DNA of 64,000 nucleotides, taken from Azonexus sp. (GTDB lineage Bacteria > Pseudomonadota > Gammaproteobacteria > Burkholderiales > Rhodocyclaceae). The notes beneath the pieces are model-generated. The model worked only from the letters and a program-made list of their open reading frames with translations, searched no databases and was not told the origin of the DNA. How positions within the stretch are numbered: the first letter of the stretch is position 1; every line of letters begins with the position of its first letter. The stretch is taken from NCBI GenBank assembly GCA_041904995.1, contig JAYRMB010000003.1, forward strand, positions 86,447 through 150,446. The letters are read 5' to 3'. This document shows positions 4,414-28,356 of this stretch, in pieces. Made by a program: the position numbers and the translations under genes.

Positions 4414-4520
4414 TGTGTTTTATCCCCCCGATTGCCCACCCTTACCATTGTCACAGACCACTGTTACCAGAATCGCTGCCCAGTCAGAAGCAACTGACCA
4501 CGTATTACCATTCTGACCAG
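4414..4520 (+). repeat. Left end with tandem transposase-binding-like repeats
   Basis: 19-nt units TTA(T/C)C...G(A/C)CCA at 4420, 4442 and 4464 (22-bp period), plus further GACCA units ending at 4500 and 4519. Confidence 0.75.
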
Positions 4521-4590
4521 TACGTTCCCTGCGCCCAGCAATCTCGCCTGACCACGATCCAGTTGCCCGACCACCTGATCGGCAGTCCAC

Positions 4591-4622
4591 AAAAAACGGA
4601 GGGGGTGTGACGCCCCTCCGTT
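4591..4622 (-). terminator. Intrinsic terminator after istB
   Basis: Minus strand AACGGAGGGG-loop-CCCCTCCGTT followed by a T-run. Confidence 0.7.
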
Positions 4623-4646
4623 GCTATGGTACAGCTCTGCTTGATA

Positions 4647-5405
4647 TCAATTAGTTGTTGCTGGCGTACTCTTGATTCCCCGGCGTTTGCGGATCGATTC
4701 CCCTCGAATTTCAAGACGGTGGGCTGAATGCACGATCCGGTCGAGCAAGGCGTCGGCAACCGTTGGCTCACCGATCCGGTCATGCCATTCGGTTACCGGG
4801 TGCTGGCTCGTCAAGATCAGAGAATTTTTCCCGGCCCGATCATCAACCAGTTCCAGTACCTCGCGAGCCGCGCCGGCATCCAGGGGGGCCATCAACCAAT
4901 CATCCAAAATGATTACCGAGGCTTTCGCCAACTGGGCTCGCAACCTGGACAGCGACCCGTCGCCCTTGGCCACAGTCAGTTCCTCCACCAAACGCGACAA
5001 CCGAAAATATCGAACTGATTTACCTTGCCGGCAAAGCTGGATGCCAAACGCAGATGCCATCCAGGATTTGCCTGCGCCCGTCGCTCCGGTAATGATCACG
5101 TGCTGTCCGGCTTCTACCCAATGCCCTAGCGCAAGCGAATTGATCAATGAGCGGTCCAAACGGCGAGCAGGATCATAGTCGATCCCTTCGATGCAGGCCC
5201 CTGGTTCCTTGAGCTTGGCATCCTTTACTAGCTTTGCCATGCGCTTGGTGTTGCGAGCCGAAACTTCCGCCTCGACCAGCATGCCAATCCGATCCTCGAA
5301 CGGCAGGGACTGAACGTCCGTTTGCCCCAACTGCAATTCCAGCGCACTGACCATCCCTGTAAGTCGCAGCTCGCGCAGCTGGTTGAAAGTTTGTTGAATC
5401 AGCAT
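4647..5405 (-). CDS. istB: IS21-family helper AAA+ ATPase IstB
   Basis: Walker A GATGAGKS, Walker B IILDDW, LILTSQHP, ADALLDRIVH, GESIR. Confidence 0.96.
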   Translation of the reverse strand: MLIQQTFNQLRELRLTGMVSALELQLGQTDVQSLPFEDRIGMLVEAEVSARNTKRMAKLVKDAKLKEPGACIEGIDYDPARRLDRSLINSLALGHWVEAGQHVIITGATGAGKSWMASAFGIQLCRQGKSVRYFRLSRLVEELTVAKGDGSLSRLRAQLAKASVIILDDWLMAPLDAGAAREVLELVDDRAGKNSLILTSQHPVTEWHDRIGEPTVADALLDRIVHSAHRLEIRGESIRKRRGIKSTPATTN

Positions 5406-5414
5406 GAAGACTCC

Positions 5415-6947
5415 TTAATGGTAATACCCGGCACCGCGGATATTGGCGTGCGTCTGAACGAGAGCGGGCTCTGTAGATTCCTGTGGCAAGGCCGCCGGAC
5501 TTTGCTTATCTCGTCCTGTCCGCAGAATCGAGCGAATACTGGATAAAGTCAGTGAGTTGATTTGCAACGCCACACCGGCAGCGGACTCCAGACGTTCCAG
5601 ACCGTGGCGCTTGCCTTCTTCGACTAACGCCACGCATGCCCGAAAACCGGCCTCCGGATGTGGCTTGTTGGCCAACAGGTGCCGAAAGATTTTCTCCGTT
5701 GCTTCGCCTACCGACTGCCCCCAGGCGATCAAGCGTGTCGGCGACCAATCGGAATAATGCTGATGCGATGACGGCATGAAGTCGCGATTGGTCGCCCGCA
5801 AGCCTTCGCCATACAGGCGAACGTGACTCGCAACCCGCCGGTGCTTGAACAGTACCTCCACCGTCTTCGCCGTCGCACGGATATCCACCGACTGATCGAC
5901 CAAACCGTGTGGAACCATATAGAAACAACCGTCGTACTCAACCATGTAATCCAGTCCGACCCGCGTACCCAGTTTCCAGTCGGCGTATTCATAGGGTTCC
6001 GGCGGCAAAGCCTTCAACGCCGGTTGATCAATTTGAGCAAAATGCTCGTTCCTTGAACCTTTCAATTTCTTGAACGGACGAGCGTTGAATTCCTCTAGTA
6101 AGAGCCGGATAGCGGCGTTTGCTTCCTCAATACTAAAAAATACCCGGTTACGCAGCTTGGCCAGAATCCACATTTGCGCGATGCGAACTCCGCCCTCAAC
6201 CTTTGCCTTGTCCTTCGGGTGTTTTGGTCGAGCAGGTATGATCACCGTCCGATAGTGGCGAGCAAAATCGACGAAACGCGGATTGAGCTTGATATTCCCC
6301 TTCCCATTTTTCAGCACCGCCGATTTCAGATTGTCGGGAACGATCATCGACGGCACTCCTCCAAAATAAGTCAGAGCATTGGCATTTGCCAGCAGCCACT
6401 CAGGTTCCTGCTGCGAGCGGCCAGCCTCAACGTAAGCTTTGCTGGAAGCCCCCATCACCGCCACGAAAATTTCCGCCATCGTCACCTCGCCGGTTTCCCG
6501 GTCGGTGATCGGCAGTCGCTTTCCCGAGTAATCGACAAACAGTTTTTCGCCGGCGCGATGGATCTGCCGCATCGTGATGTTGAGCTTGCGCGCCCACCGT
6601 TTATAGAGACGGGAAACGTGGACATAGGAATAGCCGGTTGGGTGATCGGCTCGGTATTCCTGCCAGAGTAGTTCGATTGTTACCCCTCGAATTTTGAGTT
6701 CGCGATGCCACTGCTCAAAATCCGGTAGAGGCCGATCTGCATCGCAAGAGAGGGGACGAGCATTGAAGCTGTTCTCCAATGCTGTATCGTCCATGGCCTC
6801 GATTTGGTCGAGGGTGATGCTTTTCTCGACTCTTAGCCGATCGTAACGACTGACAGTGTTATGACTGATGCCAATAATGCCGCCAATTTCCCGGTAGGTC
6901 ATTCCCCCGGCGAAAAGAACACGCAGTATTTCTCGGATGGTACTCAT
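5415..6947 (-). CDS. istA: IS21-family DDE transposase IstA (IS408-like)
   Basis: N-terminal HTH, GEKLFVDYSG, IVPDNLKS, PKDKAKVEGGV, YMVPH; RBS AAGGAGG before MSTIRE. An ATG at 7079 is an alternative start. Confidence 0.95.
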   Translation of the reverse strand: MSTIREILRVLFAGGMTYREIGGIIGISHNTVSRYDRLRVEKSITLDQIEAMDDTALENSFNARPLSCDADRPLPDFEQWHRELKIRGVTIELLWQEYRADHPTGYSYVHVSRLYKRWARKLNITMRQIHRAGEKLFVDYSGKRLPITDRETGEVTMAEIFVAVMGASSKAYVEAGRSQQEPEWLLANANALTYFGGVPSMIVPDNLKSAVLKNGKGNIKLNPRFVDFARHYRTVIIPARPKHPKDKAKVEGGVRIAQMWILAKLRNRVFFSIEEANAAIRLLLEEFNARPFKKLKGSRNEHFAQIDQPALKALPPEPYEYADWKLGTRVGLDYMVEYDGCFYMVPHGLVDQSVDIRATAKTVEVLFKHRRVASHVRLYGEGLRATNRDFMPSSHQHYSDWSPTRLIAWGQSVGEATEKIFRHLLANKPHPEAGFRACVALVEEGKRHGLERLESAAGVALQINSLTLSSIRSILRTGRDKQSPAALPQESTEPALVQTHANIRGAGYYH

Positions 6948-7219
6948 CCTTGCCTCCTTGAAGCTATTTGGCAAGGGGACGACAAATCGACGTGACGGCC
7001 CCTTGCCATCAAAACGATCCAAGCCCGTCGTCTTGACATGGAATGGAGCAGAAGGCAGAATGAATTCGTAGTGATTCATTAGCGCTTCAGAAAACGGCCG
7101 CGGTTGGCAGACCAAGGCCGTTTTTGCTTTTGTGCTCCCGCTGTTTGATGCAATACGGGTCACTAGATCATTCGACGACCTCCTTTGCGCTACCAAACTT
7201 CGCGAGGAGTATCGACCGA

Positions 7220-7462
7220 TTAGTGCGCGAGAGCGCCATCTTCGATACCTTGCTTGATGCCGAGACGTACGGCAATTCGGTGGGACTGGCCGCGCAAGCA
7301 CTTCTTGCGACCGCCCAGAATGTCGAAGACCAGATTTGCGGAGAAGCCATTCTCCCGAGCCCAGGCGGAGATGCACAAGCCACGAGCAACAAAATCGGCG
7401 CGGACTTCCGCTAGGGTTTTGACGTGCGCTGACCTATCATTACGGTCATTCATGGATCGCAT
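7220..7462 (-). CDS. Ner-like phage DNA-binding protein (BcepMu gp16-type)
   Basis: ISAWARENGFSANLVFDILGGRKKCLRGQSHRIAVRLGIKQG matches the recognisable gp16-family pattern; co-oriented upstream of istA. Confidence 0.8.
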   Translation of the reverse strand: MRSMNDRNDRSAHVKTLAEVRADFVARGLCISAWARENGFSANLVFDILGGRKKCLRGQSHRIAVRLGIKQGIEDGALAH

Positions 7463-7538
7463 CCTTTCCCGAGTGATTGAGAGTTGATGCGAGTGATTTT
7501 CCGCACTTTAGTTACAAACGTCAACACCAAAGAGCGAG

Positions 7539-8012
7539 ATGCGCAAACTCTCCAATACGAACGCCCCGGACGAAGAGGTCGAATCGACCGCCGCCAACCC
7601 CGTGCCAGAAGAAACATTAGCCGATCGTTTGCAGATGATCATCGGCAGCGAGTCCGTCGCCTCGTTTGCGCGACGTAGTGGTGTGGGAGAGAGTTTGCTG
7701 CGCAAGTATCTGAACGGCGCATTACCGAATTCAAACAATCTGGTGCTGCTAGCCGATGCCGCGGGATGCTATGTCGATTGGCTGGCGTGCGGCCGCCCAC
7801 CGATAATGCGCGTAGATCCGGCTGCTGGCACAGAGTGTTCTGACACAGAAGGCGAGTTTCTGCTGCTGAAGCGTTACCGTGCTGCCGATGACGATGAGAA
7901 AGCTGCGGTCCGAGCCTTGCTCGACGCGATAGCGAATCCGGGAGGCGGCGCCTGGTTCCGGGTCGGGCAGGCGATAACCAGCATCGCCAATATCTTTCCG
8001 CGCAAAAAATAG
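7539..8012 (+). CDS. Phage CI-like XRE HTH repressor (no S24 peptidase domain)
   Basis: LADRLQMIIG..SVASFARRSGVGESLLRKYLNG..P...LVLLADAAG..VDWLACGR; divergent from the Ner-like gene. Confidence 0.82.
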   Translation: MRKLSNTNAPDEEVESTAANPVPEETLADRLQMIIGSESVASFARRSGVGESLLRKYLNGALPNSNNLVLLADAAGCYVDWLACGRPPIMRVDPAAGTECSDTEGEFLLLKRYRAADDDEKAAVRALLDAIANPGGGAWFRVGQAITSIANIFPRKK

Positions 8013-8257
8013 CGGCTACTCTAATGAGCAGCACTCCCTGCGAGTCAGGTGTTAGTGCTAATCTGGGAAATCTTGCGCCAGAGACGTCATCTCGAAGGCA
8101 ATATCAGCTCGTGCACCGGCACACGTAGCGCATCCGCCAATTTATCGATATTGTCAATCGGGGTGTTCCGGACACCGCTCTCCACATGCGCAACAAATGT
8201 CCGGTTCAGATTCGCCTCCTGCGCCAGGTCTTCCTGAGACACTATCCATTCAACCCG

Positions 8258-9205
8258 CTAGCTGTGTAAACCCACCAGGTTGTTCAGAGAGGTAATGCGG
8301 GAGACTGGAGGCAGATATTGAAGACTGGCATGAGGGCGATGCCAGTTGTATTGATGCAGCCAGAGGGGGAGATGTTGAGCGCGGTGGTCGGAGGATTCAT
8401 AGGTGCGCGCATAGGCCCATTCCCGCAAGGCAGTCTGGATGAAGCGCTCGGCCTTGCCGTTGGTTTGCGGTGTATAGGGCTTGGTCCGCAGATGGCGCAG
8501 CCCCAGTCGTTGGCAGAGACGGGCGAAGCGCCGGGATTTGTAGCAGGCGCCGTTATCGGTCAGGACCCGCCGGAAGGTGACGCCGAACTGGCGGTAGTAG
8601 CGCAGGGCCGAGAGCAATGCGCGACAAGCGCTCCGGCCGCTCTCGTCGGGCTGGATGTCGGCAAAGGCGACTCTCGAGTTGTCGTCGAGGGCGACATGGA
8701 CGAATTCCCAGCCGGCGCCGGGCGAGGTCTGCGTGTGGTCCGCGGTCACCCGATGCCCCGGGCGGTGGAAGCGCCCGAGCTTCTTGATGTCGAGATGGAG
8801 CATGTCGCCCGGTGCGGGATGCTCATAACGCACGACGGGGGCCGCCGGCTCCAGTGAGGCCAGGCGGTTGAGTCCGGCGCGCTGGAGCCAGCGTGCCACG
8901 GTGCTGTGGCCGACGCCGCATTGCTGACTGATCTGGCGATAGGTCTGGCGGCTACGCCGTTGCTCGATCACCTGAGCCTGGATGGCCGGCGACAAGGCAT
9001 GGGGACAGGTTTGGGGGCGTGATGAGCGATCACTGAGTCCGGCCACGCCTTCGGCGCGGAAACGCTGCAGCCATTTGTAGGCGGTGCGCACACTGACGCC
9101 GCTGGCTTGGGCGGCTTCCTCGGGGCGCAGCCTACCATCGAGCATGCGACGAACCAGAAGGGCTCGACCGTGCGGCGTTAATCGGGCATTTTTATGGATG
9201 TTCAT
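8258..9205 (-). CDS. IS481-family transposase
   Basis: MNIHKNARLT, LHLDIKKLG, VLTDNG, PQTNGKAERFIQT, YNWHRPH; the stop codon comes from the target CTAG. Confidence 0.95.
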   Translation of the reverse strand: MNIHKNARLTPHGRALLVRRMLDGRLRPEEAAQASGVSVRTAYKWLQRFRAEGVAGLSDRSSRPQTCPHALSPAIQAQVIEQRRSRQTYRQISQQCGVGHSTVARWLQRAGLNRLASLEPAAPVVRYEHPAPGDMLHLDIKKLGRFHRPGHRVTADHTQTSPGAGWEFVHVALDDNSRVAFADIQPDESGRSACRALLSALRYYRQFGVTFRRVLTDNGACYKSRRFARLCQRLGLRHLRTKPYTPQTNGKAERFIQTALREWAYARTYESSDHRAQHLPLWLHQYNWHRPHASLQYLPPVSRITSLNNLVGLHS

Positions 9206-9288
9206 TCGGGGCCCCGGCGGCTTGGTTGGTTGGCGCCTCCAATTCTCCGGGGAAACACCCCGAGTGAACAACCTACAGAGAGATCACA
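8263..9288 (-). mobile_element. IS481-family insertion sequence (1026 bp)
   Basis: TGT...ACA ends with imperfect 24-bp IRs (TGTG...AGGTTGTTCA); 6-bp TSD GCTAGC at 8257-8262 and 9289-9294. Confidence 0.93.
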
Positions 9289-9417
9289 GCTAGCGGCGCA
9301 GACCGTTCACCAGCAGTGCACGTGCCGAACAACTAAATTCCACAGTGAAGGTTCCGAAGGCCCGTTCAGACCGTAGGCAGCCGGCGCGGTGGATAACGCG
9401 GATTTCATGCGGCGAGG

Positions 9418-9555
9418 TTTTCCTGCGGCAATCTGGTTCGGATGCACATCGAATTGCTGCGCGAACTCGGCTAGCGTCCTGTCGCCGTTCAAGGCGACGA
9501 TCGCCACCTTGGCCTTGAATTCCGGCGAATGATTCCGCCGCTTTCTTCTTGTCAT
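9418..9555 (-). pseudogene. IS3-family transposase OrfA fragment
   Basis: MTRRKRRNHSPEFKAKVAIVALNGDRTLAEFAQQFDVHPNQI, after which similarity is lost; no OrfB. Confidence 0.75.
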
Positions 9556-10080
9556 GCTCCTGCTCCATTTCTCCGCCACTACGGGGCCTGCGATTGAGCA
9601 AGGCCATTATTTTTCCAACTTTCCGGGGATGGTTATAAGCGGGCGCGTCGTGCAATGCCATTTTTCCGACAGAAGAAGCGCAATTGGGAGCCGAAATCTG
9701 GGACTTAATTTCGACAGTCTGTTAGAGCGAATGAAGTGCATAAAAGATTCTTTCGGCATATGCCGTTAACATTCAGTCATGCTGTTGACATTTTGTGGAA
9801 AATAATAATAATGCCAAGTCAATGCTGACCGGAGTGGCTGAAGGAAGACTAATGATGAAGATGCTTACACAGTTCTTCTACAAAAGAATAGGCATCTCAC
9901 CATCTTGGTTCTGCACCCCACTAAACCAATGATATTTAATAAGAATTAACATCGAGTTGTTCAAAATTTATTAGAAATGTTCTGAACATACACATACATG
10001 CATTCCGCATATCGATCTATGCTCCCGTCCTGTTCATGGGTGCGACGTAGGCATGTGGTGTCACATTTAAGCCAAGAAGA

Positions 10081-10974
10081 ATGATCCAAATAAATTTTAA
10101 GTATTTAATGTTTGTGGCGACGCTATTGCTGGTCGCAATGATGCAGTCAGCATCCTTTGCAGCAGAAGCCCCAAAACAGGAACTTGTGATGGGCTTTGTT
10201 CCCAGTCGCGACGTGAACCAAATCCAGTTTTCTGCGGATCGTATCGCACACTTCCTGTCCGAACAGACCGGCTACAACATCAAGGCTGTTACAGCCCAGA
10301 GTTATGCAGCGGTCGTTGTCGGTATGAGTAACAAGACTATCGATATTGCATTTCTTGGGCCGCTCGATTATGTCGTCGGCCACATCAAGAATGGCGCTTA
10401 TCCAATTACTGCATCAGTCCGTGCAGGCAAGAAGGGATACAACGGCATCGTGATTGTGCGCAAGGACAGCGAGATCACAGATCTGAAAGGTTTGAAAGGC
10501 AAAACGCTTGCCTTGGGTGACCCGCTGTCAGCGTCGTCGAATCTCTATCCAAAATCCGCGATGATCAAAGCCGGTGTCGAGCCGATGAGAGACGTCAGGA
10601 CAATGACGCTAAGCAGCGCCAGCGCGATCGTTATGTCAGTCGCGCAAGGCAAGGTCGATGCAGGCGCGGTATATCTCGATGCGCGCAAAAATCCAGAGGT
10701 AGCTGCGCGCTTCCCGAAAATCATGGATGACACGAGGGTGATTCATTCTACCGAGACGATTCCGGCCGACCCGCAGATTGTGCGAAAGGATCTGAATCCG
10801 GAGCAGGTACAGGCGCTGAAGAGAGCGTTGCTCGTGTTGTCTTCCAACGGCGAAGGCCAGAAATGGCTGAAGGAATTGTTCGGCATCGACCAGTTGGTAG
10901 CAGCGGACGATCGGGACTACGACGGGCTGCGTCACGTAATTCGCGAGGTCAACCCGATGCTGTTGAATCCTTGA
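10081..10974 (+). CDS. phnD: Phosphate/phosphite/phosphonate ABC substrate-binding protein (PhnD-like)
   Basis: Signal peptide, GFVP, DIAFLGPLDY, LKGKTLALGDPLSASSNLYP, IPADP, DRDYD. Substrate not determinable from sequence. Confidence 0.85.
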   Translation: MIQINFKYLMFVATLLLVAMMQSASFAAEAPKQELVMGFVPSRDVNQIQFSADRIAHFLSEQTGYNIKAVTAQSYAAVVVGMSNKTIDIAFLGPLDYVVGHIKNGAYPITASVRAGKKGYNGIVIVRKDSEITDLKGLKGKTLALGDPLSASSNLYPKSAMIKAGVEPMRDVRTMTLSSASAIVMSVAQGKVDAGAVYLDARKNPEVAARFPKIMDDTRVIHSTETIPADPQIVRKDLNPEQVQALKRALLVLSSNGEGQKWLKELFGIDQLVAADDRDYDGLRHVIREVNPMLLNP

Positions 10975-10990
10975 TTGCTCAAGACAGAGC

Positions 10991-11734
10991 ATGGGTGATT
11001 TTCTCAGGACAGCTGGATTGGCGAAGCGTTTCGGTGACGCAGAATTTGCGTTAGCGCCTACGGATCTTGCCTTCGGTCGTGGGCAGTTCGTTGCTGTTAT
11101 CGGCCCATCTGGCGCGGGTAAAACAACGTTCCTGCGCTGCATGAACCGCATGATCGACCCGTCCGAGGGTAAGGTTTTCATCAACGGGCAATGCATCTCA
11201 TCAATGGGAAAGCGTGAGCTGAGGCGGCGCATTGCGATGGTCTTCCAACAACCCAATCTTGTGCAGCGCTTGAGCGCGCTCGATAACGTACTGATCGGAC
11301 GGCTAGGCTTTATGACCGGTATGCGCACATTGCTTCCATGTTTTAGGCGTGAAGACAAGATGAAGGCGCTCTCTGCGCTTGATCGAGTTGGCATGCTCGA
11401 GTACGCCGCTACTAGTTGCGTCAGCCTGTCGGGGGGGCAGCAGCAACGTGTGGCGGTCGCCAGGGCGCTCGCGCAGGAAGCCGATGTACTTCTTGCTGAC
11501 GAGCCCGTGTCCAGCCTGGATCCCGAGAATGCCGCCAAGGTCATGGCGCTCCTGAAGGACATCAATCAACAGGATGGTGTGACTGTGCTTGTAAACTTGC
11601 ATCAGATTGATCTTGCGAGACAGTGCGCCAATACCATCGTGGCATTCAAAGCTGGCCGTGTGGTTTATTTTGGCACTGGCGAGGCTTTCATGGATGAGCA
11701 TTATCAGAAAGTTTTCGTGGCGGCGGCATCGTGA
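10991..11734 (+). CDS. phnC: PhnC-like ABC ATPase
   Basis: GPSGAGKT, VFQQPNLVQRLSALDNVLIGRLG, LSGGQQQRVAVARAL, LADEPVSSLDP, VNLHQ. Confidence 0.88.
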   Translation: MGDFLRTAGLAKRFGDAEFALAPTDLAFGRGQFVAVIGPSGAGKTTFLRCMNRMIDPSEGKVFINGQCISSMGKRELRRRIAMVFQQPNLVQRLSALDNVLIGRLGFMTGMRTLLPCFRREDKMKALSALDRVGMLEYAATSCVSLSGGQQQRVAVARALAQEADVLLADEPVSSLDPENAAKVMALLKDINQQDGVTVLVNLHQIDLARQCANTIVAFKAGRVVYFGTGEAFMDEHYQKVFVAAAS

Positions 11735-12804
11735 AATCCAATCTCTCCGTAGCCCTCAATCTGTTACCCGGTGTTGGATATCTGCATCGCGGCGAATATC
11801 TGCGTGGCGCGCTCGATCTAGCATGCTTCATCATCGTTCTTGGCATCGGGCGGGGACTCCTGTCTGAAGGTGGTGTGTTTCTCTCCCTGCTTGTGATGGT
11901 CAGTTCGGCGTACCGTATGGCCTATGTAGTGCATGTGTCGGCACCGATCGTCCAGCAGGCGGGGCGGACTGCTGGAGGCTCTAAAACCATCGATCCGCTG
12001 GGCATGATTATGATGCTCAAACCGCGCTGGTGGGTGAGTGTGTTCAACTGGCCTTGGCTGTATATCGTAGTGGCTGCCATGTTGGTGGCGTATCTGTCGC
12101 GCGAGACTGAGTTGTCTTGGACGCAGATAGTCATGGGTGCTCCGGGCGCGATGGAGCTGGCGAAGGACTTTTTCTCGCCGGACTGGTCCCTCCTGCCGAA
12201 TGCTTTGGGATATGCGATGCAGACGATTGCGATCGCCGTCCTGGGTACCTTCTACGGCATACTGATCGCCGTACCAATGTCGGTGTTTTGCGCGAAGAAC
12301 CTGATGCGTGCAACGTCATCAACCCACTCGGTGTACTACGTCGCACGTTGGGGGATGGCGGTGATGCGAGCCACACCGACCTTCCTACTTGGATTGATTT
12401 TTGTCGCATGGGTAGGCTTGGGTCCATTTCCTGGCGTGCTGGCTATCACAATCTTTTCCGGCGCCTTAATGACCAAGCTGTTGTCGGAAGCTATCGAGTC
12501 GGTAAACCCGGGGCCAATCGAGGCAGCAACCGCTACGGGCGCTAATCTTTTCCACGTGATTCTCTTCTCGGTTTTTCCACAGCTGCCAACGGTATTTATT
12601 GCAATATCGCTTTACTGCCTCGAGATCAATATCCACAGCGCCACGGTTCTGGGTCTGATCGGTGCACAGGGCATAGGCATGCCCATACATGAATATCTTT
12701 CGTCCCTAGCCTATAGCAGTGCATCGGTCTATATCTTGGTCGTCATTTTCATCACGATCGGGACGGATTATGCGAGTGGTCTGGTTCGCTCGCGCATCAA
12801 ATAG
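11731..12804 (+). CDS. phnE: PhnE-like ABC permease with N-terminal TM extension
   Basis: EAIESVNPGPIEAATATGA, LEINIHSATVLGLIGAQGIG; overlaps the phnC stop. Confidence 0.85.
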   Translation: MKSNLSVALNLLPGVGYLHRGEYLRGALDLACFIIVLGIGRGLLSEGGVFLSLLVMVSSAYRMAYVVHVSAPIVQQAGRTAGGSKTIDPLGMIMMLKPRWWVSVFNWPWLYIVVAAMLVAYLSRETELSWTQIVMGAPGAMELAKDFFSPDWSLLPNALGYAMQTIAIAVLGTFYGILIAVPMSVFCAKNLMRATSSTHSVYYVARWGMAVMRATPTFLLGLIFVAWVGLGPFPGVLAITIFSGALMTKLLSEAIESVNPGPIEAATATGANLFHVILFSVFPQLPTVFIAISLYCLEINIHSATVLGLIGAQGIGMPIHEYLSSLAYSSASVYILVVIFITIGTDYASGLVRSRIK

Positions 12805-12951
12805 CGAATGAAACCACTGTTTGAAAATTGCTATTTTGACTCCGTATCCATTTTCCGGGATGGAACTACACGCACGGTCAGTTACTTGTTGTTTTCAACT
12901 TGGCGAGGATTTATTCATGAATTTGTCCGATTTCTTCATAGGAGAGATAAA

Positions 12952-15357: not shown

Positions 15358-15382
15358 CTTGCACAAATAGGAGGAGAGAGAA

Positions 15383-19702: not shown

Positions 19703-20869
19703 ATGCCTAGACTATTTCTGCTTGTTCTTTTTCTGACGGTAGCAATCAATACTGGTATGGGAATGATTATTCCCGTCATGCCAACCCTTCTCAAAGAGTT
19801 TGGTTTTAGCACGTTAGGACTATCGCTACCCTTCGCCGCCCTGATCATTGCACGGATAGTTTCAAAGCCTTGGGCGGGTGTCGCACTCAATCGTCTGGGT
19901 GGGCGCTACCTTATGTTGATGGTTTTCGCCGTCTACTCACTTGCGTTTTTCTTGTACCCGGTCTGCCATAGCCAATTTGGCTTTATTTTGCTGAGAGTGC
20001 TGGAGGGCTTTGCCGAAGGCGTGGGTGGAGTCGTCATAACGAATTCAGCAATCGTGATGACGACTGGCCTACGAAACCGTGGGGTTCTTATGGGCTACTT
20101 CTCAGCAGCATTCGGCGTGGGCTTCATTGTCGGACCAATAATCGGTTGGCTAGCACTCGAAACCGTGGGTACCACTGGAATGTTCTTTGTAGGTGGATGT
20201 GTCGGCCTGCTCGGATTGGTTGCAAGTGCTATGTTGCCGCGAAGAAATAATGAGTCGTTGCCGCCAAAAACGAGCCTAAGAGAGCTTGCCAATAATTTGG
20301 GATATCTCATTCCATACATCCCCAGCGTACTTCGAAGAGCGTTGTTTTTCTCTTTCATGATTATTGTGCCGTTATTTGCCACGGGTCGATTAGGGGTTTC
20401 TGCAGAAAAGGTCGGCTTACTGTTTACAGCGTCTGGAATAATCTCAACAGTATGTATGTTTTTTACTGGGAAACTCGCGGATTTCTTTGACCCCAAGAAA
20501 TTAGCGGCTTGGTGCCTCGCAGGGATGGGCATTCTGATCGCCATATGCGGATTCACAAATTCGGTTGAGGCATTTTTGGTTTTCTTTCTTGCGGAAACAC
20601 TACTTTTCGCAATTATGTTGCCTGCGGGTACGAAAGTATTTGCAGTCGCGATTGACAATCATCCTTTGCGCGAGCCAATGGTTGGTTCATTCGGTAGCTT
20701 TACCGAAGTATGCACCGTCATTTTGGCCTTTCTGCTTCCGGCTATTTTAGAAATTAGTATCACCGGCGCCTGGGTCTTTATGGGGGGGCTTTGTGTCGTT
20801 GGTGCTGTGCTATTGCTTCAATGGCAGCCCATTTCCGGGGCCAGGCGCGAAGTCGTAAGCACGAGCTGA
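19703..20869 (+). CDS. MFS transporter (probable exporter)
   Basis: About 12 hydrophobic segments, motif-A-like NRLGGR, LRVLEGFAEG, GFIVGPIIG. Confidence 0.88.
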   Translation: MPRLFLLVLFLTVAINTGMGMIIPVMPTLLKEFGFSTLGLSLPFAALIIARIVSKPWAGVALNRLGGRYLMLMVFAVYSLAFFLYPVCHSQFGFILLRVLEGFAEGVGGVVITNSAIVMTTGLRNRGVLMGYFSAAFGVGFIVGPIIGWLALETVGTTGMFFVGGCVGLLGLVASAMLPRRNNESLPPKTSLRELANNLGYLIPYIPSVLRRALFFSFMIIVPLFATGRLGVSAEKVGLLFTASGIISTVCMFFTGKLADFFDPKKLAAWCLAGMGILIAICGFTNSVEAFLVFFLAETLLFAIMLPAGTKVFAVAIDNHPLREPMVGSFGSFTEVCTVILAFLLPAILEISITGAWVFMGGLCVVGAVLLLQWQPISGARREVVSTS

Positions 20870-20969
20870 ACGACAGCATGCCGATGGCTGAGGTCGACCA
20901 TTGATCGACACAAAAGCACGTCGTAGCAACGCTCAATTTGACTGTTAGAAAATGATCTAAGGTGTGCGA

Positions 20970-22121
20970 ATGCAAATATCCAATGGAAGAAAAACCCCAT
21001 TTCACGATGAGCACGTAAAGGCCGGAGGTAGATTGATGTCTATCTCCGGGTGGGTCAGGCCGCTCCACTATGGTTCGCCTGCAATGGAGATTTCTGCTAT
21101 TCGGAATGCGCTTGGACTTTTTGATCTCCACCCCATGAGCAGGCATATTATCGAAGGCCCCGACGCTCTTGCATTTATGCAGCTCGTAGTAACAAGCGAT
21201 GTAAAACGAGCGATATCCAATTCCGCGGCCCAGTACACATGCTTTTGCGATGAACGGGGCGGAATCATTGATGACGTGTTGATCTTCCCGAGGTCTGCCG
21301 ATGAGTTCCTGATCACTTCCAGTGTTGCGGCTGCAGAAACGCTGGGGGGGTGGATGAGGCGGTGGGTCCAGGAGAGTGGTTTGAATGTTCAATTGCGTGA
21401 TATCAGTGCATTCGAAACCCAATTTGCATTACAAGGGCCGCGCAGCCTGGAACTCGTTCGCAAAGAGTTTGGGGCGAAGGTCGCTGCCTTAAAGCACATG
21501 CAATTTGTCGAGACAGCGCTCAACGGCACTCCTGTGTTCTTGGCCCGCACTGGGTATACGGGAGAGTGTGGCTTTGAGTTTCTTGCTGATGCTCATCAAG
21601 CAGCAGATCTATGGCAGTACTTGCTTGAATCTGGCGCGGAATTCGGTATCGCACCGTTCGGAATCATGGCCGCTCAAACGCTACGCATTGAAAAAGGATA
21701 CGTACTGAATGGTGTAGATATGAGTAGCCAAAACAATCCCTATGAGATTGGCCTTGATTGGACGGTTTGTACGGACAAGGAGGGTTTTCTGGGGAAAGAT
21801 GAACTGTTACGCGCGAAGGCTCAAGGCGTTAAGCGACGCTTTCGCAGATTCTATATCGAGGGAACGGACATAGTACCCAGCGGCACAGAGATCTATGCTC
21901 AAGAGAGCGAAGTCGGTCGAGTTACTAGTTGCTGTAATAGCCCCACGTTAGGTCGTGTCATTGGAATGGGCTTGGTTGATACGTCGATTAGCGGAGACTG
22001 TCCATACTACGTGCGAAGAGGTAATCAGCGATGGCAGGTGTCTTTCATCGAAAGGGCGTTTTATGACCCAGAGGGCACCAGGCTAAAAGCGATACTGCCC
22101 GAAGAGAGTTTGTTGGGCTGA
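20970..22121 (+). CDS. GcvT-family folate-binding aminomethyltransferase-like protein
   Basis: RKTPFHDEH, GLFD, GGIIDD, FALQGP, RTGYTGECGFE, LRIEKGY, GRVTS; no gcvH or gcvP nearby. Confidence 0.9.
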   Translation: MQISNGRKTPFHDEHVKAGGRLMSISGWVRPLHYGSPAMEISAIRNALGLFDLHPMSRHIIEGPDALAFMQLVVTSDVKRAISNSAAQYTCFCDERGGIIDDVLIFPRSADEFLITSSVAAAETLGGWMRRWVQESGLNVQLRDISAFETQFALQGPRSLELVRKEFGAKVAALKHMQFVETALNGTPVFLARTGYTGECGFEFLADAHQAADLWQYLLESGAEFGIAPFGIMAAQTLRIEKGYVLNGVDMSSQNNPYEIGLDWTVCTDKEGFLGKDELLRAKAQGVKRRFRRFYIEGTDIVPSGTEIYAQESEVGRVTSCCNSPTLGRVIGMGLVDTSISGDCPYYVRRGNQRWQVSFIERAFYDPEGTRLKAILPEESLLG

Positions 22122-22124
22122 ACG

Positions 22125-22862
22125 ATGTGCGGAGACAATTTTTCTTATTCCGTTAGACACAATATCTGCATAACGACAAGGGCGATCTGTCTACTGATGG
22201 CATGCGTACTGCCATTTGAATCTTTCGCAGCGGAGGATGGATTTTCGATCGCGAACAGCATCACCCGTCTTCAGATACGTAATACGGTCGACACAAATGA
22301 CATTACTAGCGTTACCGCTTCATCTTTTTTGCAAGCAAAAAACAAGACGTACTTCTTGGGAATTGTCGACTATCAAGTGGATCATGAGCGGCACAACATC
22401 AATGGCCGCATCGAGGGAAATCTGGGCGGTCCATTTCCCGGCAGTCCTTTGGGTTGGGTTGCGCGTGGCAGAGTGTATTACCAGCAAAACTCGGTTGCTG
22501 CCGCGGGCGTACAGCTGAGCTTCAATGAGTTGCCCGAATTGGGGCCCGTCCTTAAAAAGTTAGGTATTACAACCTTCGTACAATTGCTCCGCAATACCAA
22601 TGATCCTTATTTCGGCGATTCCGAGGTTCTTCACTACTACAGTGTCGATATTGTCCCTAAACAATTAGCGCTCCGCGGATACAACGTGTTCAACAGCGCG
22701 GGGAAAGATAAGGCTGTTCGCAACTCTTGGGCAGACCTAATTTATTCGTTAAATGACAGGTTCGACGTTTACTACCGGATAAACGATGTGAGCCGGAAAA
22801 ATGGATATCTCGGCCCACCTGGAGCAACGCAATATTTAGGGTTTCGGATCAACTGGTATTAG
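22125..22862 (+). CDS. Putative exported/outer-membrane beta-barrel protein
   Basis: Signal-like ...ACVLPFESFA, alternating beta-strand pattern, aromatic C-terminus YLGFRINWY. Confidence 0.55.
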   Translation: MCGDNFSYSVRHNICITTRAICLLMACVLPFESFAAEDGFSIANSITRLQIRNTVDTNDITSVTASSFLQAKNKTYFLGIVDYQVDHERHNINGRIEGNLGGPFPGSPLGWVARGRVYYQQNSVAAAGVQLSFNELPELGPVLKKLGITTFVQLLRNTNDPYFGDSEVLHYYSVDIVPKQLALRGYNVFNSAGKDKAVRNSWADLIYSLNDRFDVYYRINDVSRKNGYLGPPGATQYLGFRINWY

Positions 22863-22953
22863 TGCCGACCCCGCTTACGCCTTGACGCTAAACAGCGCAT
22901 CTCTAAAGGTTGTCCAATTCATTCCTTTTAACTTTTTATACCAGGCAATTCAG

Positions 22954-24462
22954 ATGCTAGAGCTCCTTAATTCAGTGGTCGCACGCATGCCCCAAAGTAC
23001 CGGGGTTCTGCACACCATCTCGCAGGGTCATAGACGTTGCTATACCTATCCAGAGGTATTTGAGGATGTCCTCCGTGTACGCTCATACCTTGATTGTCTC
23101 GGCCTCAAGTCTGGATGTTCTATAGGTGTTCGTGCGGACAACAGCTACGAGTGGATACTTCTTGACCTGGCATGCCTTTCCTTGGGCGTTGTCCTTGTAC
23201 CTTTCGATCCGAAAGTTCAGGAGTCGCCAGAGATTCTTATCGAACACTACGGACTGAGTGCGCTATTCCATGATCGACCAGAAGGGGTTGCGCATCGCAA
23301 TTCCATCCAAATATGCACCGTCCTCGAACACCCTAAATCCCTCGACGAAAGTGACGCACCCTTCTTCCAATTTGAGGCAGACTCAATCGTATGCATGAAG
23401 TTTACGTCGGGGACAACCAGTCTACCAAAAGGAATTCCGGCTAAGGCCAAAAACATTGCTGATTGCGTACATGTCATTCAAGATGCATTTCACCATACAG
23501 CCGACGACTTGATTCTTTCGTTTCTCCCGCTCTATCTCTTGCAGCAACGGTACTTCATCTACTCGTCCATTTTGTTCGATATTCCTCTTGTCGTTGTACC
23601 GTACATTCAGTCGTTTTCGGCCATCTCAAATCTACATCCAACGGTTGTGATGGCGGTCCCCCATTTTTTAGACACGCTATTTCAGCGCTATCATCAGGCG
23701 AACACTGCGATAGGAGGTGGCCCGGACTTAAACTCGCAAGTGTCCGAGGCTATCTTTGGCAAGCGGTTGCGGTATCTGTGGACAGGTTCTGCTCCAATAT
23801 CAATTGACCTTCTCCGTCGGTATGAAGCACTGGGAATACCCGTCTATCAAGGCTACGGGACTGCGGAAACCGGCATTCTCACTAAGAATGTATCCGGAAA
23901 TAATCGCTACGGCAGCGTCGGCCGAGTGTTGCCGGGACGAGAGATTAAGATTAGCCAATCTGGAGAGATTCAGGCGCGTGTCCATGCTGAGCTCAACACG
24001 CACTACTCTGCAGGAAGCATATCCAAGCTCGGACAGCGCTTTCTTGATGCCGATGGATTCTTCCCGACGGGTGATCTTGGCTATTTCGATGATGATGGCT
24101 TTCTGTACATCACCGGAAGACTAAAGAACATTATCGTTTTATCGAGTGGTCGGAAAATCAATCCGGAGCCAATCGAAACAGCGATTGCATCTGGTGTCGA
24201 CATCGAGGCCTGTGTTCTCTTCGCGTCACGCGCGGGGCGGCTGACAGCCATTGTCGATTCGGCTCTCTCCGAGCAACTTGTCGCTAAGCGATTAGCAGAG
24301 GTAAACAGTACGCTTGCGGCGGAAGATCATATTGCAAAATTCTTGGTTGTTAAACACGCGTTTTCAAACGAGAGTGGGCTGAGAAATGCGCAAGGGAAGA
24401 TTGTCCGCGATCGCGTATACCAAAATTTCAGAGTACGACTCCAAGAATTGGGCGTGGAATAG
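22954..24462 (+). CDS. AMP-dependent acyl-CoA/acyl-ACP ligase (ANL superfamily)
   Basis: FTSGTTSLPKG, YQGYGTAETG, TGDLG, GRLKNIIVLSSGRKINP, terminal Lys motif QGKIVR. The ORF could start at TTG 22882. Confidence 0.92.
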   Translation: MLELLNSVVARMPQSTGVLHTISQGHRRCYTYPEVFEDVLRVRSYLDCLGLKSGCSIGVRADNSYEWILLDLACLSLGVVLVPFDPKVQESPEILIEHYGLSALFHDRPEGVAHRNSIQICTVLEHPKSLDESDAPFFQFEADSIVCMKFTSGTTSLPKGIPAKAKNIADCVHVIQDAFHHTADDLILSFLPLYLLQQRYFIYSSILFDIPLVVVPYIQSFSAISNLHPTVVMAVPHFLDTLFQRYHQANTAIGGGPDLNSQVSEAIFGKRLRYLWTGSAPISIDLLRRYEALGIPVYQGYGTAETGILTKNVSGNNRYGSVGRVLPGREIKISQSGEIQARVHAELNTHYSAGSISKLGQRFLDADGFFPTGDLGYFDDDGFLYITGRLKNIIVLSSGRKINPEPIETAIASGVDIEACVLFASRAGRLTAIVDSALSEQLVAKRLAEVNSTLAAEDHIAKFLVVKHAFSNESGLRNAQGKIVRDRVYQNFRVRLQELGVE

Positions 24463-24470
24463 CAAACTTC

Positions 24471-25310
24471 ATGCTGTTGCATTCTATAAATTGGCCACCG
24501 TTTAATTCGACGGATTCCGTTAGCGCAACCCGGCCTCAAATCGAATCTGCATTACCAGGACTCGAAGGTTCTTGGTCGATGTCCGTTCATAGCACGCAAC
24601 CAGACGAGCCCGTCTTAGAACTCACAGTACATTTCGTTGAGTTCGAGAGTCGGCTCTCTGTGCTGGGCAATGGTAAAACGTTAGCCGGCTCGTCGTGCCC
24701 AACGCAAATAGGGTTCAGCGCATCTTGTCGCAAAGCGGAGTTTTCATCGGGACGACAGGCCGCGCGATGTGCCCTAACGCAACTCTCCCCCGCGCTGGCC
24801 AGCGTGTTAGTACCTATTGGTGGTGATCGAGAGCCACTTTGGCCGCAAGGCGTAGTGGGAAGTATCACGCATGTCTCGGGCTTGGCGGGAGCTGCGGTAG
24901 GTCTGTCAAATTCGTGGCGCTACCTGGGAATTGATCTTGAGCAGACTGCAGGTGGCAAAGCACAGTCGGCGTTACGCGCTTTTGTGCTCGACAGTGCGGA
25001 ACTATCGTTGCTGCAACGACGCTGCGAAGCGATTGGGCAACTTAACCTGGATACTCATGTTACTCACGTCTTCAGCGCGAAGGAGTGCTTGTACAAAGCA
25101 GCCTTCCCGAGTGTGCGCCGCTTCTTCGGTTTTTCCGAAGCCAGGTTGTGCGAATACGATTTTCTTTCTGCCGATCGTGGACCTGAGGTTCGGCTTGCGC
25201 TTGAAATTACGGATGGGCTTGGCGGCGAATTTGTCGCGGGTAGCCGCTGGTGGGTTGAGGTTTGGCGAATAAAAACCCCCTATACATATCTGTCTGTGTT
25301 GGCGTGCTAG
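24471..25310 (+). CDS. 4'-phosphopantetheinyl transferase (EntD/Sfp type)
   Basis: RKAEFSSGRQAAR, PLWPQGVVGSITH, LGIDLE, FSAKECLYKA. Start uncertain. Confidence 0.9.
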   Translation: MLLHSINWPPFNSTDSVSATRPQIESALPGLEGSWSMSVHSTQPDEPVLELTVHFVEFESRLSVLGNGKTLAGSSCPTQIGFSASCRKAEFSSGRQAARCALTQLSPALASVLVPIGGDREPLWPQGVVGSITHVSGLAGAAVGLSNSWRYLGIDLEQTAGGKAQSALRAFVLDSAELSLLQRRCEAIGQLNLDTHVTHVFSAKECLYKAAFPSVRRFFGFSEARLCEYDFLSADRGPEVRLALEITDGLGGEFVAGSRWWVEVWRIKTPYTYLSVLAC

Positions 25311-25377
25311 CGGCGGAGATAAAACACTGACGTACGTTATTAGAAGACTAAATTCAAACTCAAAGAGGAGGGCACGC

Positions 25378-25530
25378 ATGAAAGCGTGGACCTGTATGTG
25401 TATGGCGGTATCTATGACGAAGTGGCGGACATAGGGGAGGGTATCGACCCTAGTGCGCAACAGGGAGAGATATAAAACATTGACAGTGTCTGAGTGGCGC
25501 TTTTACCAAACCTGATTTGGAAATGACAGG
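25378..25530 (+). pseudogene. Decayed rubredoxin-like gene
   Basis: Strong RBS GAGGAGG, then MKAWTC / frameshift / GIYDE..EGIDP / stop / KPDLEM; resembles the rubredoxin consensus with lost Cys residues. Confidence 0.5.
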
Positions 25531-25599
25531 CGTTTTGACGTGGCTGTTGCAAAGCGCAAGTTCCCACAGTTTTATCTTCAATTGCTTTAAAGGCTAGCT

Positions 25600-26412
25600 A
25601 TGACTTATATCGTACCTTCAGAATTTGCCAAGAAAATGGTGGATGCAGGCGAATCAAAAATCTGCATGTCCACTCGAGATACGTTGATCCGTGCGTACAT
25701 GGCTGGCGCGGTCTTGGCACTATCTGCCGCATTTGCCATATTTCTTAGCGTGCAAACTCAACAACCGTTAATAGGAGCATTGTTCTTTCCAGTCGGTTTC
25801 TCGATGCTCTATTTAATGGGGTTTGATTTACTGACTGGCGTGTTCGTCCTAGCCCCGTTGGCATTGATTGATAGACGGCCCGGTGCAACGATAAAAGGTG
25901 TCCTTCGAAATTGGAGTTTGGTCTTTTTCGGCAATTTTGTGGGCGCCCTCACCGTAGCAATGATGATGGCAGTCGTGTTTACTTATGGCTTCTCCACGTC
26001 TCCTGGTCCAGTTGGAGAAAGAATTGCCAGTATCGCTGAAGGACGGACCCTAGGGTATGCACAGTACGGTTTGGCGGGCTGGATTACCATCTTCTTTCGC
26101 GGCGTGCTGTGCAATTGGATGGTCTCGATGGGAGTCGTAGGGGCCATGATCTCAACAACTGTGGGCGGCATGGTCATCGCAATGTGGATGCCAATTATGT
26201 TGTTCTTCGCAATGGGATTCGAACACTCAGTGGTCAACATGTTCTTATTCCCTTCGGCGATGATTATGGGTGGCAATTTTACAATTGCTGACTATTTTAT
26301 TTGGAACGAAATTCCGACCGTTCTCGGCAATATGCTCGGCGGCTTGGTGTTTACAGGCATGGCACTTTATAGCACCCATGTGAGAACGGGTGCAAAACGC
26401 AGCGTTACCTAA
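25600..26412 (+). CDS. Formate/nitrite transporter (FNT) family channel
   Basis: LLTG, FFGNFVG, GVLCNWMV, GFEHSVVNMF, LGNMLGG. Confidence 0.93.
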   Translation: MTYIVPSEFAKKMVDAGESKICMSTRDTLIRAYMAGAVLALSAAFAIFLSVQTQQPLIGALFFPVGFSMLYLMGFDLLTGVFVLAPLALIDRRPGATIKGVLRNWSLVFFGNFVGALTVAMMMAVVFTYGFSTSPGPVGERIASIAEGRTLGYAQYGLAGWITIFFRGVLCNWMVSMGVVGAMISTTVGGMVIAMWMPIMLFFAMGFEHSVVNMFLFPSAMIMGGNFTIADYFIWNEIPTVLGNMLGGLVFTGMALYSTHVRTGAKRSVT

Positions 26413-26768
26413 TCTCAAAGCCATCAAGGCATGGAGCATGGCTCATTTTTAGTAACTATTCACGCACGACAGGTTGATCGAAATCGAGGCCAAGCTACTA
26501 CCTATAGTAGCTCGAAAATGAACCAATCCTCGAAATTTGTCGTATTTAGCACGGCGTCATGGTGGCGCTGAATGCATTGTTCTACAAGTGGTTGTTTTTC
26601 ACGGTTTTCGGAAAAGCCCCGCTGAATGGATACCATTTTTATATCTGCCAGCCCGGCTTGTTATCAAAGCGGCCGTATCTTTCTGGCGCTTCGTTGCACA
26701 TCCGAATCTAAGTAATACATCACTTTTCTTCTTCACTGCCGCACATGGCACAACCCCAAGGAACCCAC

Positions 26769-27989
26769 ATGACTAACCGAATTTACTCCGCGCTCTTCGC
26801 CACAGTGGAAATGGCGCCCCGTGATCCAATTCTTGGTCTGACTGAAGCCTTCAACGCCGATATCCGCAGCAACAAGGTCAACCTCGGCGTCGGCATGTTC
26901 TTTGATGACGATGGCCAAATCACGCTACTCTCTGCGGTCAAGGCAGCCGAAAAGGCGCGCCTCGAAGCCATGCCAGCACGCGCCTACCAGCCAATCGACG
27001 GCCTTGTCGCCTATAACCAGGCCGTACAGGAACTGCTATTCGGCGAGGACTCTGAAGTGGTTGCTGATGGCCGCGTGCTGACCATCGAGGCGCTCGGCGG
27101 CACCGGAGCGCTGAAAGTCGGCGCCGATTACCTCAAGCGCCTTTTGCCCGATACAAGAGTATACGTTAGTGATCCGAGTTGGGAGAACCACCGCGCCTTG
27201 TTCGAATCGGCAGGCTTCCCGGTCGAAACCTACCCATACTACGACCCAGCTACGCACGGGGTGAATTTCTCAGGCCTTAAGAGAAAGCTCGGTGAACTGC
27301 CCGCCGGTTCGGTCGTCGTTATGCATGCCTGCTGCCACAACCCGACCGGAGCCGACCTGAATAAAGCTCAGTGGCGTGAACTCGTTGAGATCTGCGGTAC
27401 ACGTCAACTAGTACCATTCATCGACATGGCCTACCAGGGCTTCGCTGACGGCGTCGAGATGGATGCTTTCGCGCCGCGCCTTTTCGCCAGCTCGGGCATG
27501 TCGTTCTTCGTTTCTAGCTCATTTTCGAAGTCGTTTTCACTATATGGCGAACGCGTCGGCGCGTTATCCATCGTCACCGCCACCAATGATGAGCGCTTTC
27601 GCGTCCTGAGCCAAGTGAAGAGCGTCATTCGCACCAACTACTCGAACCCGCCGACTCACGGTGGCGCAGTCGTTGCATCCGTGCTTTCAAACCCCTCTCT
27701 GCGCGGGTTGTGGCTCGACGAGCTGGCAGGCATGCGTGAGCGCATCCGTGCCATGCGTACCAGCCTTGTCGCCAAGCTCAGCGAACGCGGCGTCAATCAG
27801 GACTTTTCTTTTGTCACTAACCAACGCGGTATGTTCTCCTATACCGGTCTCACTGCTGAGCAGGTCGAGCGCCTGAAGAATGAGTACGCCATCTACGCTG
27901 TCAGCACCGGCCGCATTTGCTTGGCTGCATTGAATTCGCGCAACATTGACTACGTCGCAGACTCGATCGCCGCAGTTCTGACAGACTGA
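26769..27989 (+). CDS. tyrB: Aromatic/aspartate aminotransferase (class I PLP)
   Basis: APRDPILGL, KVNLGVG, LGGTGAL, HACCHNPTG, DMAYQGF, SFSKSFSLYGERVG, QRGMFS. Confidence 0.92.
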   Translation: MTNRIYSALFATVEMAPRDPILGLTEAFNADIRSNKVNLGVGMFFDDDGQITLLSAVKAAEKARLEAMPARAYQPIDGLVAYNQAVQELLFGEDSEVVADGRVLTIEALGGTGALKVGADYLKRLLPDTRVYVSDPSWENHRALFESAGFPVETYPYYDPATHGVNFSGLKRKLGELPAGSVVVMHACCHNPTGADLNKAQWRELVEICGTRQLVPFIDMAYQGFADGVEMDAFAPRLFASSGMSFFVSSSFSKSFSLYGERVGALSIVTATNDERFRVLSQVKSVIRTNYSNPPTHGGAVVASVLSNPSLRGLWLDELAGMRERIRAMRTSLVAKLSERGVNQDFSFVTNQRGMFSYTGLTAEQVERLKNEYAIYAVSTGRICLAALNSRNIDYVADSIAAVLTD

Positions 27990-28249
27990 GTATCGGTAAG
28001 GGATACTAGCCGATGGCGCCTTGGGATTGGCGAAAGGGAAGACGCTAGCACTCTTCTTTGCCTCGATTAGCCTTGAATAGCTCGCCTAATCTTTGAGAAA
28101 GTTCTGATGCTGTTCTGGTGTCATCGGCCCATCGGGGGGGGGGCAGTTCCTGATTATCTAGAGTTCCCAAGCTTGGCGTGGTATCTGCCGGAATTTTCAA
28201 GAGTACGGGCTGCCAGCGGTCAATAGAAATCTGTTGGACAACAGGCAAC

Positions 28250-28356
28250 CGCTGGTCGGCTTGTTGCTTTACTGGTCAGTATGAGAACTCTGGGTACTAT
28301 GAAGTGTGATGGGCTATGCTGTTGAAAGTGTCTGGTCTTCTGAGTGGTAATACGCA
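28250..28356 (-). repeat. Right end of the element with subterminal repeats
   Basis: TGG(T/G)(C/T) cores at 28253, 28273, 28291, 28310 and 28333; terminus rc TGCGTATTACCACTCAGAAGACCA resembles left-end unit CGTATTACCATTCTGACCA (4501-4519). Confidence 0.75.

Follow-up and report, generated by a model that had tools for sequence, protein, structure and literature searches.

How does an istA-istB pair of the IS21 family of insertion sequences (ISs) come to sit at one end of a 24-kb element? This question is raised by a 64,000-nucleotide stretch of Azonexus sp. DNA (GCA_041904995.1, contig JAYRMB010000003.1, positions 86,447 to 150,446; hereafter "the window"), in which positions 4414-28356 are bounded like one transposon and contain a single pair of such genes. 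Our analysis indicates that this segment is very probably a non-composite (unit) IS21-family transposon, which had an ancestral length of 22.9 kb and measures 23.9 kb here after the insertion of an IS481-family element into its interior.

The segment spans 23,943 bp, from a TG at 4414 to a CA at 28356, and is flanked by an exact duplication of CCGAC (4409-4413 and 28357-28361), all of which were checked directly in the sequence. Rejoining the flanks (4075-4413 with 28362-29234) yields a 403-codon open reading frame (ORF) for a DUF3391/HD-GYP protein. In this ORF, the junction (residue 113) falls inside the Pfam DUF3391 match (residues 3-126), after which comes an HD_5 domain of the HD-GYP type. 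In the window, the 5' part of the interrupted gene occupies 4075-4413 on the plus strand, its last five nucleotides being the left copy of the duplication, and the right copy together with the 3' part occupies 28357-29234 on the same strand, as assigned from sequence and Pfam. The G+C content is 52% for the whole element, 50% for its cargo, and 63% for both flanks. A preliminary description of this DNA, made from the letters alone, had read the duplication, the TG...CA termini, and the rejoined gene in the same way, and our analysis bears it out on each of them.

To determine whether these boundaries recur, we used public metagenome runs (X numbers below). The left junction of the window was found in activated-sludge runs, and the insertion sites were sampled from activated-sludge and wastewater contigs and from short unitigs. 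The empty site, with one CCGAC, is present in contigs from X1-X4 and X6-X8, which pass from 4413 into ATGATGCTGGCGG... / ATGATGCTGGCGGCGCGTGCCGG (28362 onward). In X1, the occupied junction has a depth of 433 and the empty allele a depth of 147, which implies that this sample is a mixture of both alleles. At a second site, with the duplication GCCAT, ...GCGCCTGGCCAT precedes the left tip in X3, and GCCATGACCTGCC... follows the right tip in both X3 and X4; in X4, this right flank continues into 2.6 kb of the element interior. At a third site, with the duplication CCTGG, the right tip is followed by CCTGGACGATCG... in a catA-like gene adjoining benABCD. Contigs of this site, found via the FNT protein of the cargo, contain the right flank in loci L118-L121 and L124 (five samples) and in X21, X22, and X35, and the left flank (...GGAACGATTCCTGG) in X21 and X29. 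A further paired site has CATGA on both sides in X29, so that there are four paired events, each with its own 5-bp duplication (CCGAC, GCCAT, CCTGG, and CATGA). An additional right flank, ATTAGGCC..., was found in X22.

In sequence, these sites appear unrelated, and those seen reveal no evident target preference. Contigs end exactly at the 4414 tip in X2, X3, X22, and X29 and in loci L110 and L113. Overall, more than 12 different flanks adjoin the 4414-type tip, and at least six flanking contexts adjoin the 28356 tip, one of them being the element's own left end. Contigs of 18.9-19.1 kb and 21.6 kb cover the element interior without a break. Altogether, one pair of ends encloses one transposition module and its cargo and moves as a whole, as seen from the empty site and the four paired sites. 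The preliminary description had called for the same boundaries to be sought with other cargo or at other sites, and both were found at other sites, with GCCAT, CCTGG, and CATGA as the respective duplications.

The insertion in the catA-like dioxygenase gene, which heads a benABCD-benE-pcaIJ cluster (L118-L121, 12714-19431), is the most widespread one, with occurrences in wastewater, sludge, and seawater runs. The junction with the element's own left end lies in contig L122 (12740-12790; Logan, SRR22388203), where GCTTAC separates the right tip (...GGTAATACGCA) from the left end, which begins at its fifth base (TTTTATCCTCCCGATTGCCCGTCCTTACCA). Since six unrelated bases replace the four outermost bases of the left end, this is not a clean reactive junction of the IS21 type; it may represent an aberrant end-to-end junction, from either a circle or a tandem, and is the sole hint of a reactive junction intermediate in our data. 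An exact 25-mer from the right end had no match in the JGI metagenomes.

The two ends share a repeat architecture. The IstB-proximal terminal inverted repeat, which corresponds to the IS21 right end, lies at 4414-4530, has the tip TGTG, and contains repeats at 4420-4438, 4442-4461, and 4464-4483 (about 22 bp apart) and at 4505-4520. The IstA-distal terminal inverted repeat, which corresponds to the IS21 left end, lies at 28260-28356, has the tip ...ACGCA, and contains repeats at 28332-28350, at 28310-28327, and near 28290. Read from the tip inward, the left end is TGTGTT TTATCC CCCCGAT TGCCCA ... and the right end is TGCGTA TTACCA CTCAGAA GACCAG ..., the distal tip having the architecture TGCGTATTACC... 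with a repeat spacing of about 22 bp. In both ends, TTAYCN occupies nucleotides 7-12 and KRCCMR nucleotides 20-25 from the tip, and more copies follow about 22 bp apart in the same register. In addition, the 10-mer CTGACCAGTA is present in inverted orientation about 100 nt inside each tip (4513-4522 and, as the reverse complement, 28260-28269). For the IS21-family element IS5376, the reported rules are a terminal CA, two or more direct repeats in each end with a spacing of 23 bp, and target duplications of 5 bp (PMC10122671); our element has repeats, a terminal CA, and duplications of the same kind, and its end layout agrees with these rules. A BLAST comparison of one end against the other gave no match, the similarity being visible only as repeats in register. 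Within the non-coding part of the right end (28124-28145), we also observed a run of 10 G that is four bases shorter in the X21, X22, and X29 copies.

An ordinary IS21 element has its istA-side end about 100 bp upstream of istA. To search for such an end, we used an end model, a 49-nt weight matrix built from the IstB-side tips of 10 relatives with no window sequence included. Among 127,904 window positions, this model ranks 4414 (plus strand) first with 50.1 bits and 28356 (minus strand) second with 12.7 bits. Between 6948 and 10080, the best candidate for a cryptic istA-side end in the right orientation ranks only 117th, with -5 bits. Moreover, relatives sharing 94-96% of the module diverge from the window only at the repressor stop codon (8011/8012), and there is no end-like sequence at that point. 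Two statements of the preliminary description thus hold, namely that related ~20-bp repeats occur at both ends (with a spacing of about 22 bp in a common register, as we found) and that no IS end lies between istA and the regulators.

A different way to account for the remote end is that an IS21-like element without an istA-side end mobilised adjacent DNA through a chance surrogate end at 28356, by one-ended or "transposition unit" capture as with ISEcp1, in which case the cargo would be accidental. This would fit the score of 28356, which is far below that of 4414 and barely above background, and the lack of BLAST similarity between the two ends. However, the same 28356 tip is used at four sites at least and has three repeats whose register matches that of the other end exactly, and all clade members (see below) lack the near end, with cargo carried to several sites. 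We therefore regard a surrogate end as an unlikely explanation; it may explain the origin of the element, yet 28356 now behaves as a fixed end.

Several observations weigh against the interpretation of 4414-28356 as a unit transposon of the IS21 family. The likeness of the distal end to the IstB-side end is weak (12.7 versus 50.1 bits), and its margin over the third-ranked window position is small (12.7 versus 12.5 bits). No relative's distal end was recovered, and the consensus of the istA-distal end consists of this one element: in about 20 loci with 1.3 to 10 kb of upstream sequence, neither a search for a duplication plus TG nor weight-matrix scans detected a second end. The flanks with GCCAT, CCTGG, and CATGA come from short metagenome unitigs and are paired solely by their 5-bp match, and the left-end variant at the CCTGG and CATGA sites is common to a sister element with other cargo. 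Two left-end flanks, in X21 (CATTG, CATTGGTAACGCC...) and X35 (GCAGT, GCAGTACCTACGG..., both read outward), have no right-end partner; they probably belong to sister elements with the same left-end variant.

The transposition module adjoins the 4414 end. The istB gene (4647-5405, minus strand) encodes an AAA+ helper ATPase of 252 aa (PF01695, 1e-65; NF038214, 238 bits against an NCBIfam equivalog cut-off of 200), in whose translation both Walker A (GATGAGKS) and Walker B (IILDDW) are intact. The istA gene (5415-6947, minus strand) encodes a DDE transposase of 510 aa that matches NF033546 over its full length (263 bits, cut-off 160) and contains the PF22483 beta-barrel domain. istB lies directly downstream of istA on the same strand, with a gap of 9 nt, and is followed on its 3' side by an intrinsic-terminator-like hairpin (4595-4622, minus strand). 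Profile scans found no other IstA or IstB genes in the element, in line with the preliminary description, which had placed the pair at the left end only.

These features define the relation to the IS21 family (IS21, IS5376, and the ISPsy14 group). As in that family, an IstA DDE transposase gene is followed on the same strand by the gene for an IstB AAA+ helper, the tips are TG...CA, each end has several direct repeats about 22-23 bp apart (two or more per end), and the target duplication is 5 bp. A typical IS21 is compact, measures about 2-2.6 kb, has no passengers, and has its left end immediately before istA. By contrast, our element is 22.9-23.9 kb long, has its istA-side end 21 kb away from istA and no end within 6948-10080, carries about 17 passenger genes, and has a repressor/Ner-like pair and a 270-nt structured leader before istA. 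Its IstA belongs to a separate clade, sharing only 40-48% identity with most of the family.

The "regulators" of the preliminary description are part of the transposition module and consist of a divergent pair of genes, for a cI-type repressor and a Ner-like protein. The Ner-like protein (7220-7462, minus strand; 80 aa) is a small DNA-binding protein of the BcepMu gp16 family (TIGR04111, 1e-23), and its gene is the first in a ner-istA-istB transcription unit; its positional equivalents in relatives match Pfam HTH_35 (Ner family). The repressor (7539-8012, plus strand; 157 aa, HTH_3) is of the cI/XRE type and is encoded divergently from ner-istAB. Between the two genes (7463-7538) lie a divergent promoter with a sigma-70-like site at 7524-7496 (minus strand) and, presumably, the operator.

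The region between the ner-like gene and istA (6948-7219, minus strand) forms a structured leader, in that its 270 nt outfold all but one of 200 shuffles (z = -3.8). The predicted fold includes a terminator-like hairpin at about 7090-7127 (AAAACGGCC...GGCCGUUUU) and pairing over the istA ribosome-binding site. Both the hairpin and the DNA similarity, which reaches 7186, are kept in relatives with 81% IstA identity. An Rfam scan across the element, leader included, matched no family.

By analogy with IS21 biochemistry (PMC10122671), IstA would bind the ~22-bp-spaced repeats at both tips (4414 and 28356) and, as a tetramer, pair the two ends through them; it would then cut at the terminal CA and join the ends to the target with a 5-bp stagger. 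The IstB ATPase would assemble on the target, bend it, and activate strand transfer. As judged from the gene layout, the repressor would shut off the ner-istA-istB promoter, the Ner-like protein would counteract it, as in Mu, and the leader hairpins could add termination or translational control. We infer, in short, that IstA and IstB move the element and that the repressor pair controls them. Since the regulators, the leader, and the cargo all lie between istA and its end, transposase expression is probably under a Mu-like repressor/Ner switch rather than the IS21 junction promoter.

This layout raises the possibility that the element is a decayed Mu-like transposable prophage, of which the repressor, ner, transposase, and ATPase survive, the phage genes having been replaced. 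The module does resemble the early region of Mu (c, ner, A, B) and of BcepMu-like phages: a divergent repressor and a Ner-type protein, here one of the BcepMu gp16 family, precede a DDE transposase and its AAA+ partner, the ends contain multiple transposase sites, and the duplication is 5 bp. However, the enzymes are of the IS21 type rather than MuA and MuB, and the transposase genes are oriented towards the nearby end, whereas those of Mu point away from it. No phage structural genes are present in the element or in any relative, and no relative was found in IMG/VR. A tblastn search of IstA against phage genomes gave matches in AcaML1, Burkholderia vB_E174, and PhiR12 of only 40-43% identity; because no c/ner-like pair is annotated beside istA in these three regions, they appear to be ordinary IS21 insertions. 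We consider a prophage origin highly improbable. A transposable phage of the Mu class as such was also rejected, as morphogenesis and lysis genes were not found between the ends.

The zone between the repressor and the cargo is filled with debris, namely an XRE fragment, an IS481-family element, and an IS3-family orfA remnant (9307-9579, minus strand; a weak PF01527 match), the last of which is also present in L110. The IS481-family element (8263-9288, minus strand) is a secondary insertion of 1026 bp with inverted repeats (NF033577, 310 bits). Its target is CTAG, its 6-bp duplication GCTAGC is found at 8257-8262 and 9289-9294, and its insertion point lies either immediately before a small XRE gene or in the first part of that gene. 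The IS481-free form, CAACCAGCTAGCGGCG, is present in L110 and L113, copies otherwise 99% identical, whereas the window reads CAACCCGCTAGC, the IS, and GCTAGCGGCG. The absence of this IS from L110 and L113 marks it as a later insertion and gives an ancestral element of 22,911 bp.

One could still suppose that some other machinery (that of a composite transposon, a site-specific integrase, or a Tn7/Tn5053-type element) installed the segment as a genomic island, with the IS21 genes as passengers, and the IS481 and IS3 fragments inside the element would be compatible with such a history. However, the sister copy L110 lacks the IS481 insertion, the element has entered sites of unrelated sequence with 5-bp duplications, and the tips match those of relatives in the IS21 clade. 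Moreover, a scan of the major ORFs (at least 100 aa, plus the small ORFs of the left end) detected neither another istAB copy nor any tyrosine or serine recombinase, TnsA, TniQ, or TnsC. This explanation is thus very improbable. Among its specific forms, a composite transposon was rejected on the single istAB pair and on IS481 being single, internal, and absent from L110. A Tn7-like or Tn5053-like element was rejected because TnsA, TniQ/TnsD, and TnsC/TniB domains are missing from the scanned ORFs.

Tn7-like and Tn5053/Tn402 elements are likewise unit transposons with a DDE transposase and an AAA+ regulator, asymmetric multi-repeat ends, and 5-bp duplications, and they carry large variable cargo, often defence systems (PMC8649781). 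The differences are that our element lacks TnsA and a TniQ/TnsD selector, that its ATPase is IstB (PF01695) rather than TnsC/TniB, and that its sites appear unrelated. IS21 itself is stated to have no known target selector (PMC10293859).

The cargo (10081-27989, plus strand) comprises about 17 co-oriented genes and is found as a block, about 99% identical, in many wastewater contigs. Its products include a PhnD/C/E-type ABC importer, a PEBP, a 580-aa protein, an FdxA ferredoxin, and a GNAT acetyltransferase; a C45 acyltransferase, an alpha/beta hydrolase, a YrdC-like protein, an MFS transporter, and a GcvT-like aminomethyltransferase; and a 245-aa protein, an adenylating enzyme, an Sfp-type phosphopantetheinyl transferase, an FNT channel, and an aromatic aminotransferase. 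The 580-aa and 245-aa proteins have no sequence matches in the PDB. The preliminary description had regarded the element as a non-composite, Tn-like IS21 vehicle for an entire pathway; our results support the vehicle, but no pathway could be assigned to the cargo, and the "entire pathway" is an unproven guess.

In L110, identity to the window is 98.9% for the cargo (9287-25356) but only 94.3% for the module (4414-8278), which implies that the module was exchanged or diverged separately. In BLAST comparisons, relatives with other cargo cease to match the window at 8011/8012, where the repressor gene has its stop codon, which suggests that modules and cargos are swapped by recombination at this point.

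Homologues of IstA fall into two groups, a close group with 58-100% identity and the bulk of the family with 44-48%, which includes proteins named ISPsy14, mostly on contigs of 2-3.5 kb. In every close-group member examined (at least 62% IstA identity), the region upstream of istA encodes a small protein, Ner-like or unclassified, and, divergently, a repressor of the HTH_3/cI type, and the members examined have a like tip about 230 bp past istB. The conserved module is accompanied by diverse cargo: a P-type ATPase with a cusCBA operon in the Zoogloea type (L010, 1-7773); a GAP1-N1/DO-GTPase1/2/GASH/GAAD conflict system (L001; L035, 1-6643; L043); a restriction-like set of SNF2, DUF4391, N6_N4 methylase, and ResIII-endonuclease (L037, 1-8310); RHS/YD toxin cassettes (L036, 3647-8843); and WYL together with other genes (L040). 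Some of these combinations recur at different sites. L010, L045, L048, and L050 have 12.5 kb in common, including cusCBA, with 95-99.9% identity up to the tip and different flanks beyond it, and L001, L035, and L043 share the GTPase conflict system in three different flanks. L009 retains only the last 70 bp of cusA, which shows that the cargo was linked to the module before these copies separated. Judged from these comparisons, the element is not a one-off but a member of a clade of such transposons.

The preliminary description had named a stand-alone 2.5-kb copy of this IS as an observation that would count against it. No such copy was found among IstA clade members at 62% identity or above, all of which have the regulator pair. 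Contigs of 3.6-3.9 kb do occur, with one break at the IstB-side tip; the other break is no terminus but lies at an internal IS481 or within the repressor gene. A homologue search with the P-type ATPase of L010, made in walking upstream of that locus, gave a best identity of 76%, and among distant blastn matches in PLSDB there were only short istA segments.

We tentatively propose, as a possibility falling just short of an even chance, that this element is the first representative to be recognised of a clade, as yet unnamed, of unit transposons derived from IS21, in which a Mu-type repressor/Ner switch has replaced junction-promoter control and whose members ferry payloads of 10-20 kb (metabolic operons, metal efflux, anti-phage conflict systems, and RHS toxins) between wastewater and sediment bacteria. 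Transporter ISs (tISs) that have been described usually have one or a few passenger genes. Our element resembles them in having a single transposition module plus passenger genes inside one end pair (concept in PMC9330008), and we found no example in the literature of an IS21-family tIS with a cargo of 10-20 kb. Reviews treat IS21 as istA and istB only, and our full-text literature searches turned up no account of IS21 unit transposons with large cargo or a c/ner module; the element may already have been named, since ISfinder and TnCentral lie outside the scope of that search.

Among transposases under the control of AAA+ ATPases, IS21 serves as a structural model, and it is regarded as a small IS. 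If a clade used these two proteins to move more than 20 kb, the cargo capacity of the system would exceed what is known so far. The natural asymmetric ends of such a clade would serve structural and biochemical work, and the shared regulatory layout would link IS21 to Mu and Tn7. If the proposal of such a clade is true, these transposons would represent a living intermediate between simple IS21 elements and machines of the Mu or Tn7 type. They would also be a vehicle spreading metal resistance, defence systems, and a metabolic operon through wastewater communities, and annotation pipelines in which istAB is called an "IS21 family IS" would overlook the cargo boundaries altogether.

Two pairs of relatives show variation of a smaller kind. 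The Zoogloea-type copies in L048 (10672) and L050 (12548-13050) are 99.97% identical and have the same flank, with 503 extra bases next to the IstB-side tip in L050, which could reflect an adjacent deletion or a small insertion. L040 and L041 have identical IstA and flank and differ in the repressor-side genes upstream of the ner-like gene, which encode a 168-aa HTH protein and a WYL protein in one and proteins of 113 aa and 301 aa in the other.

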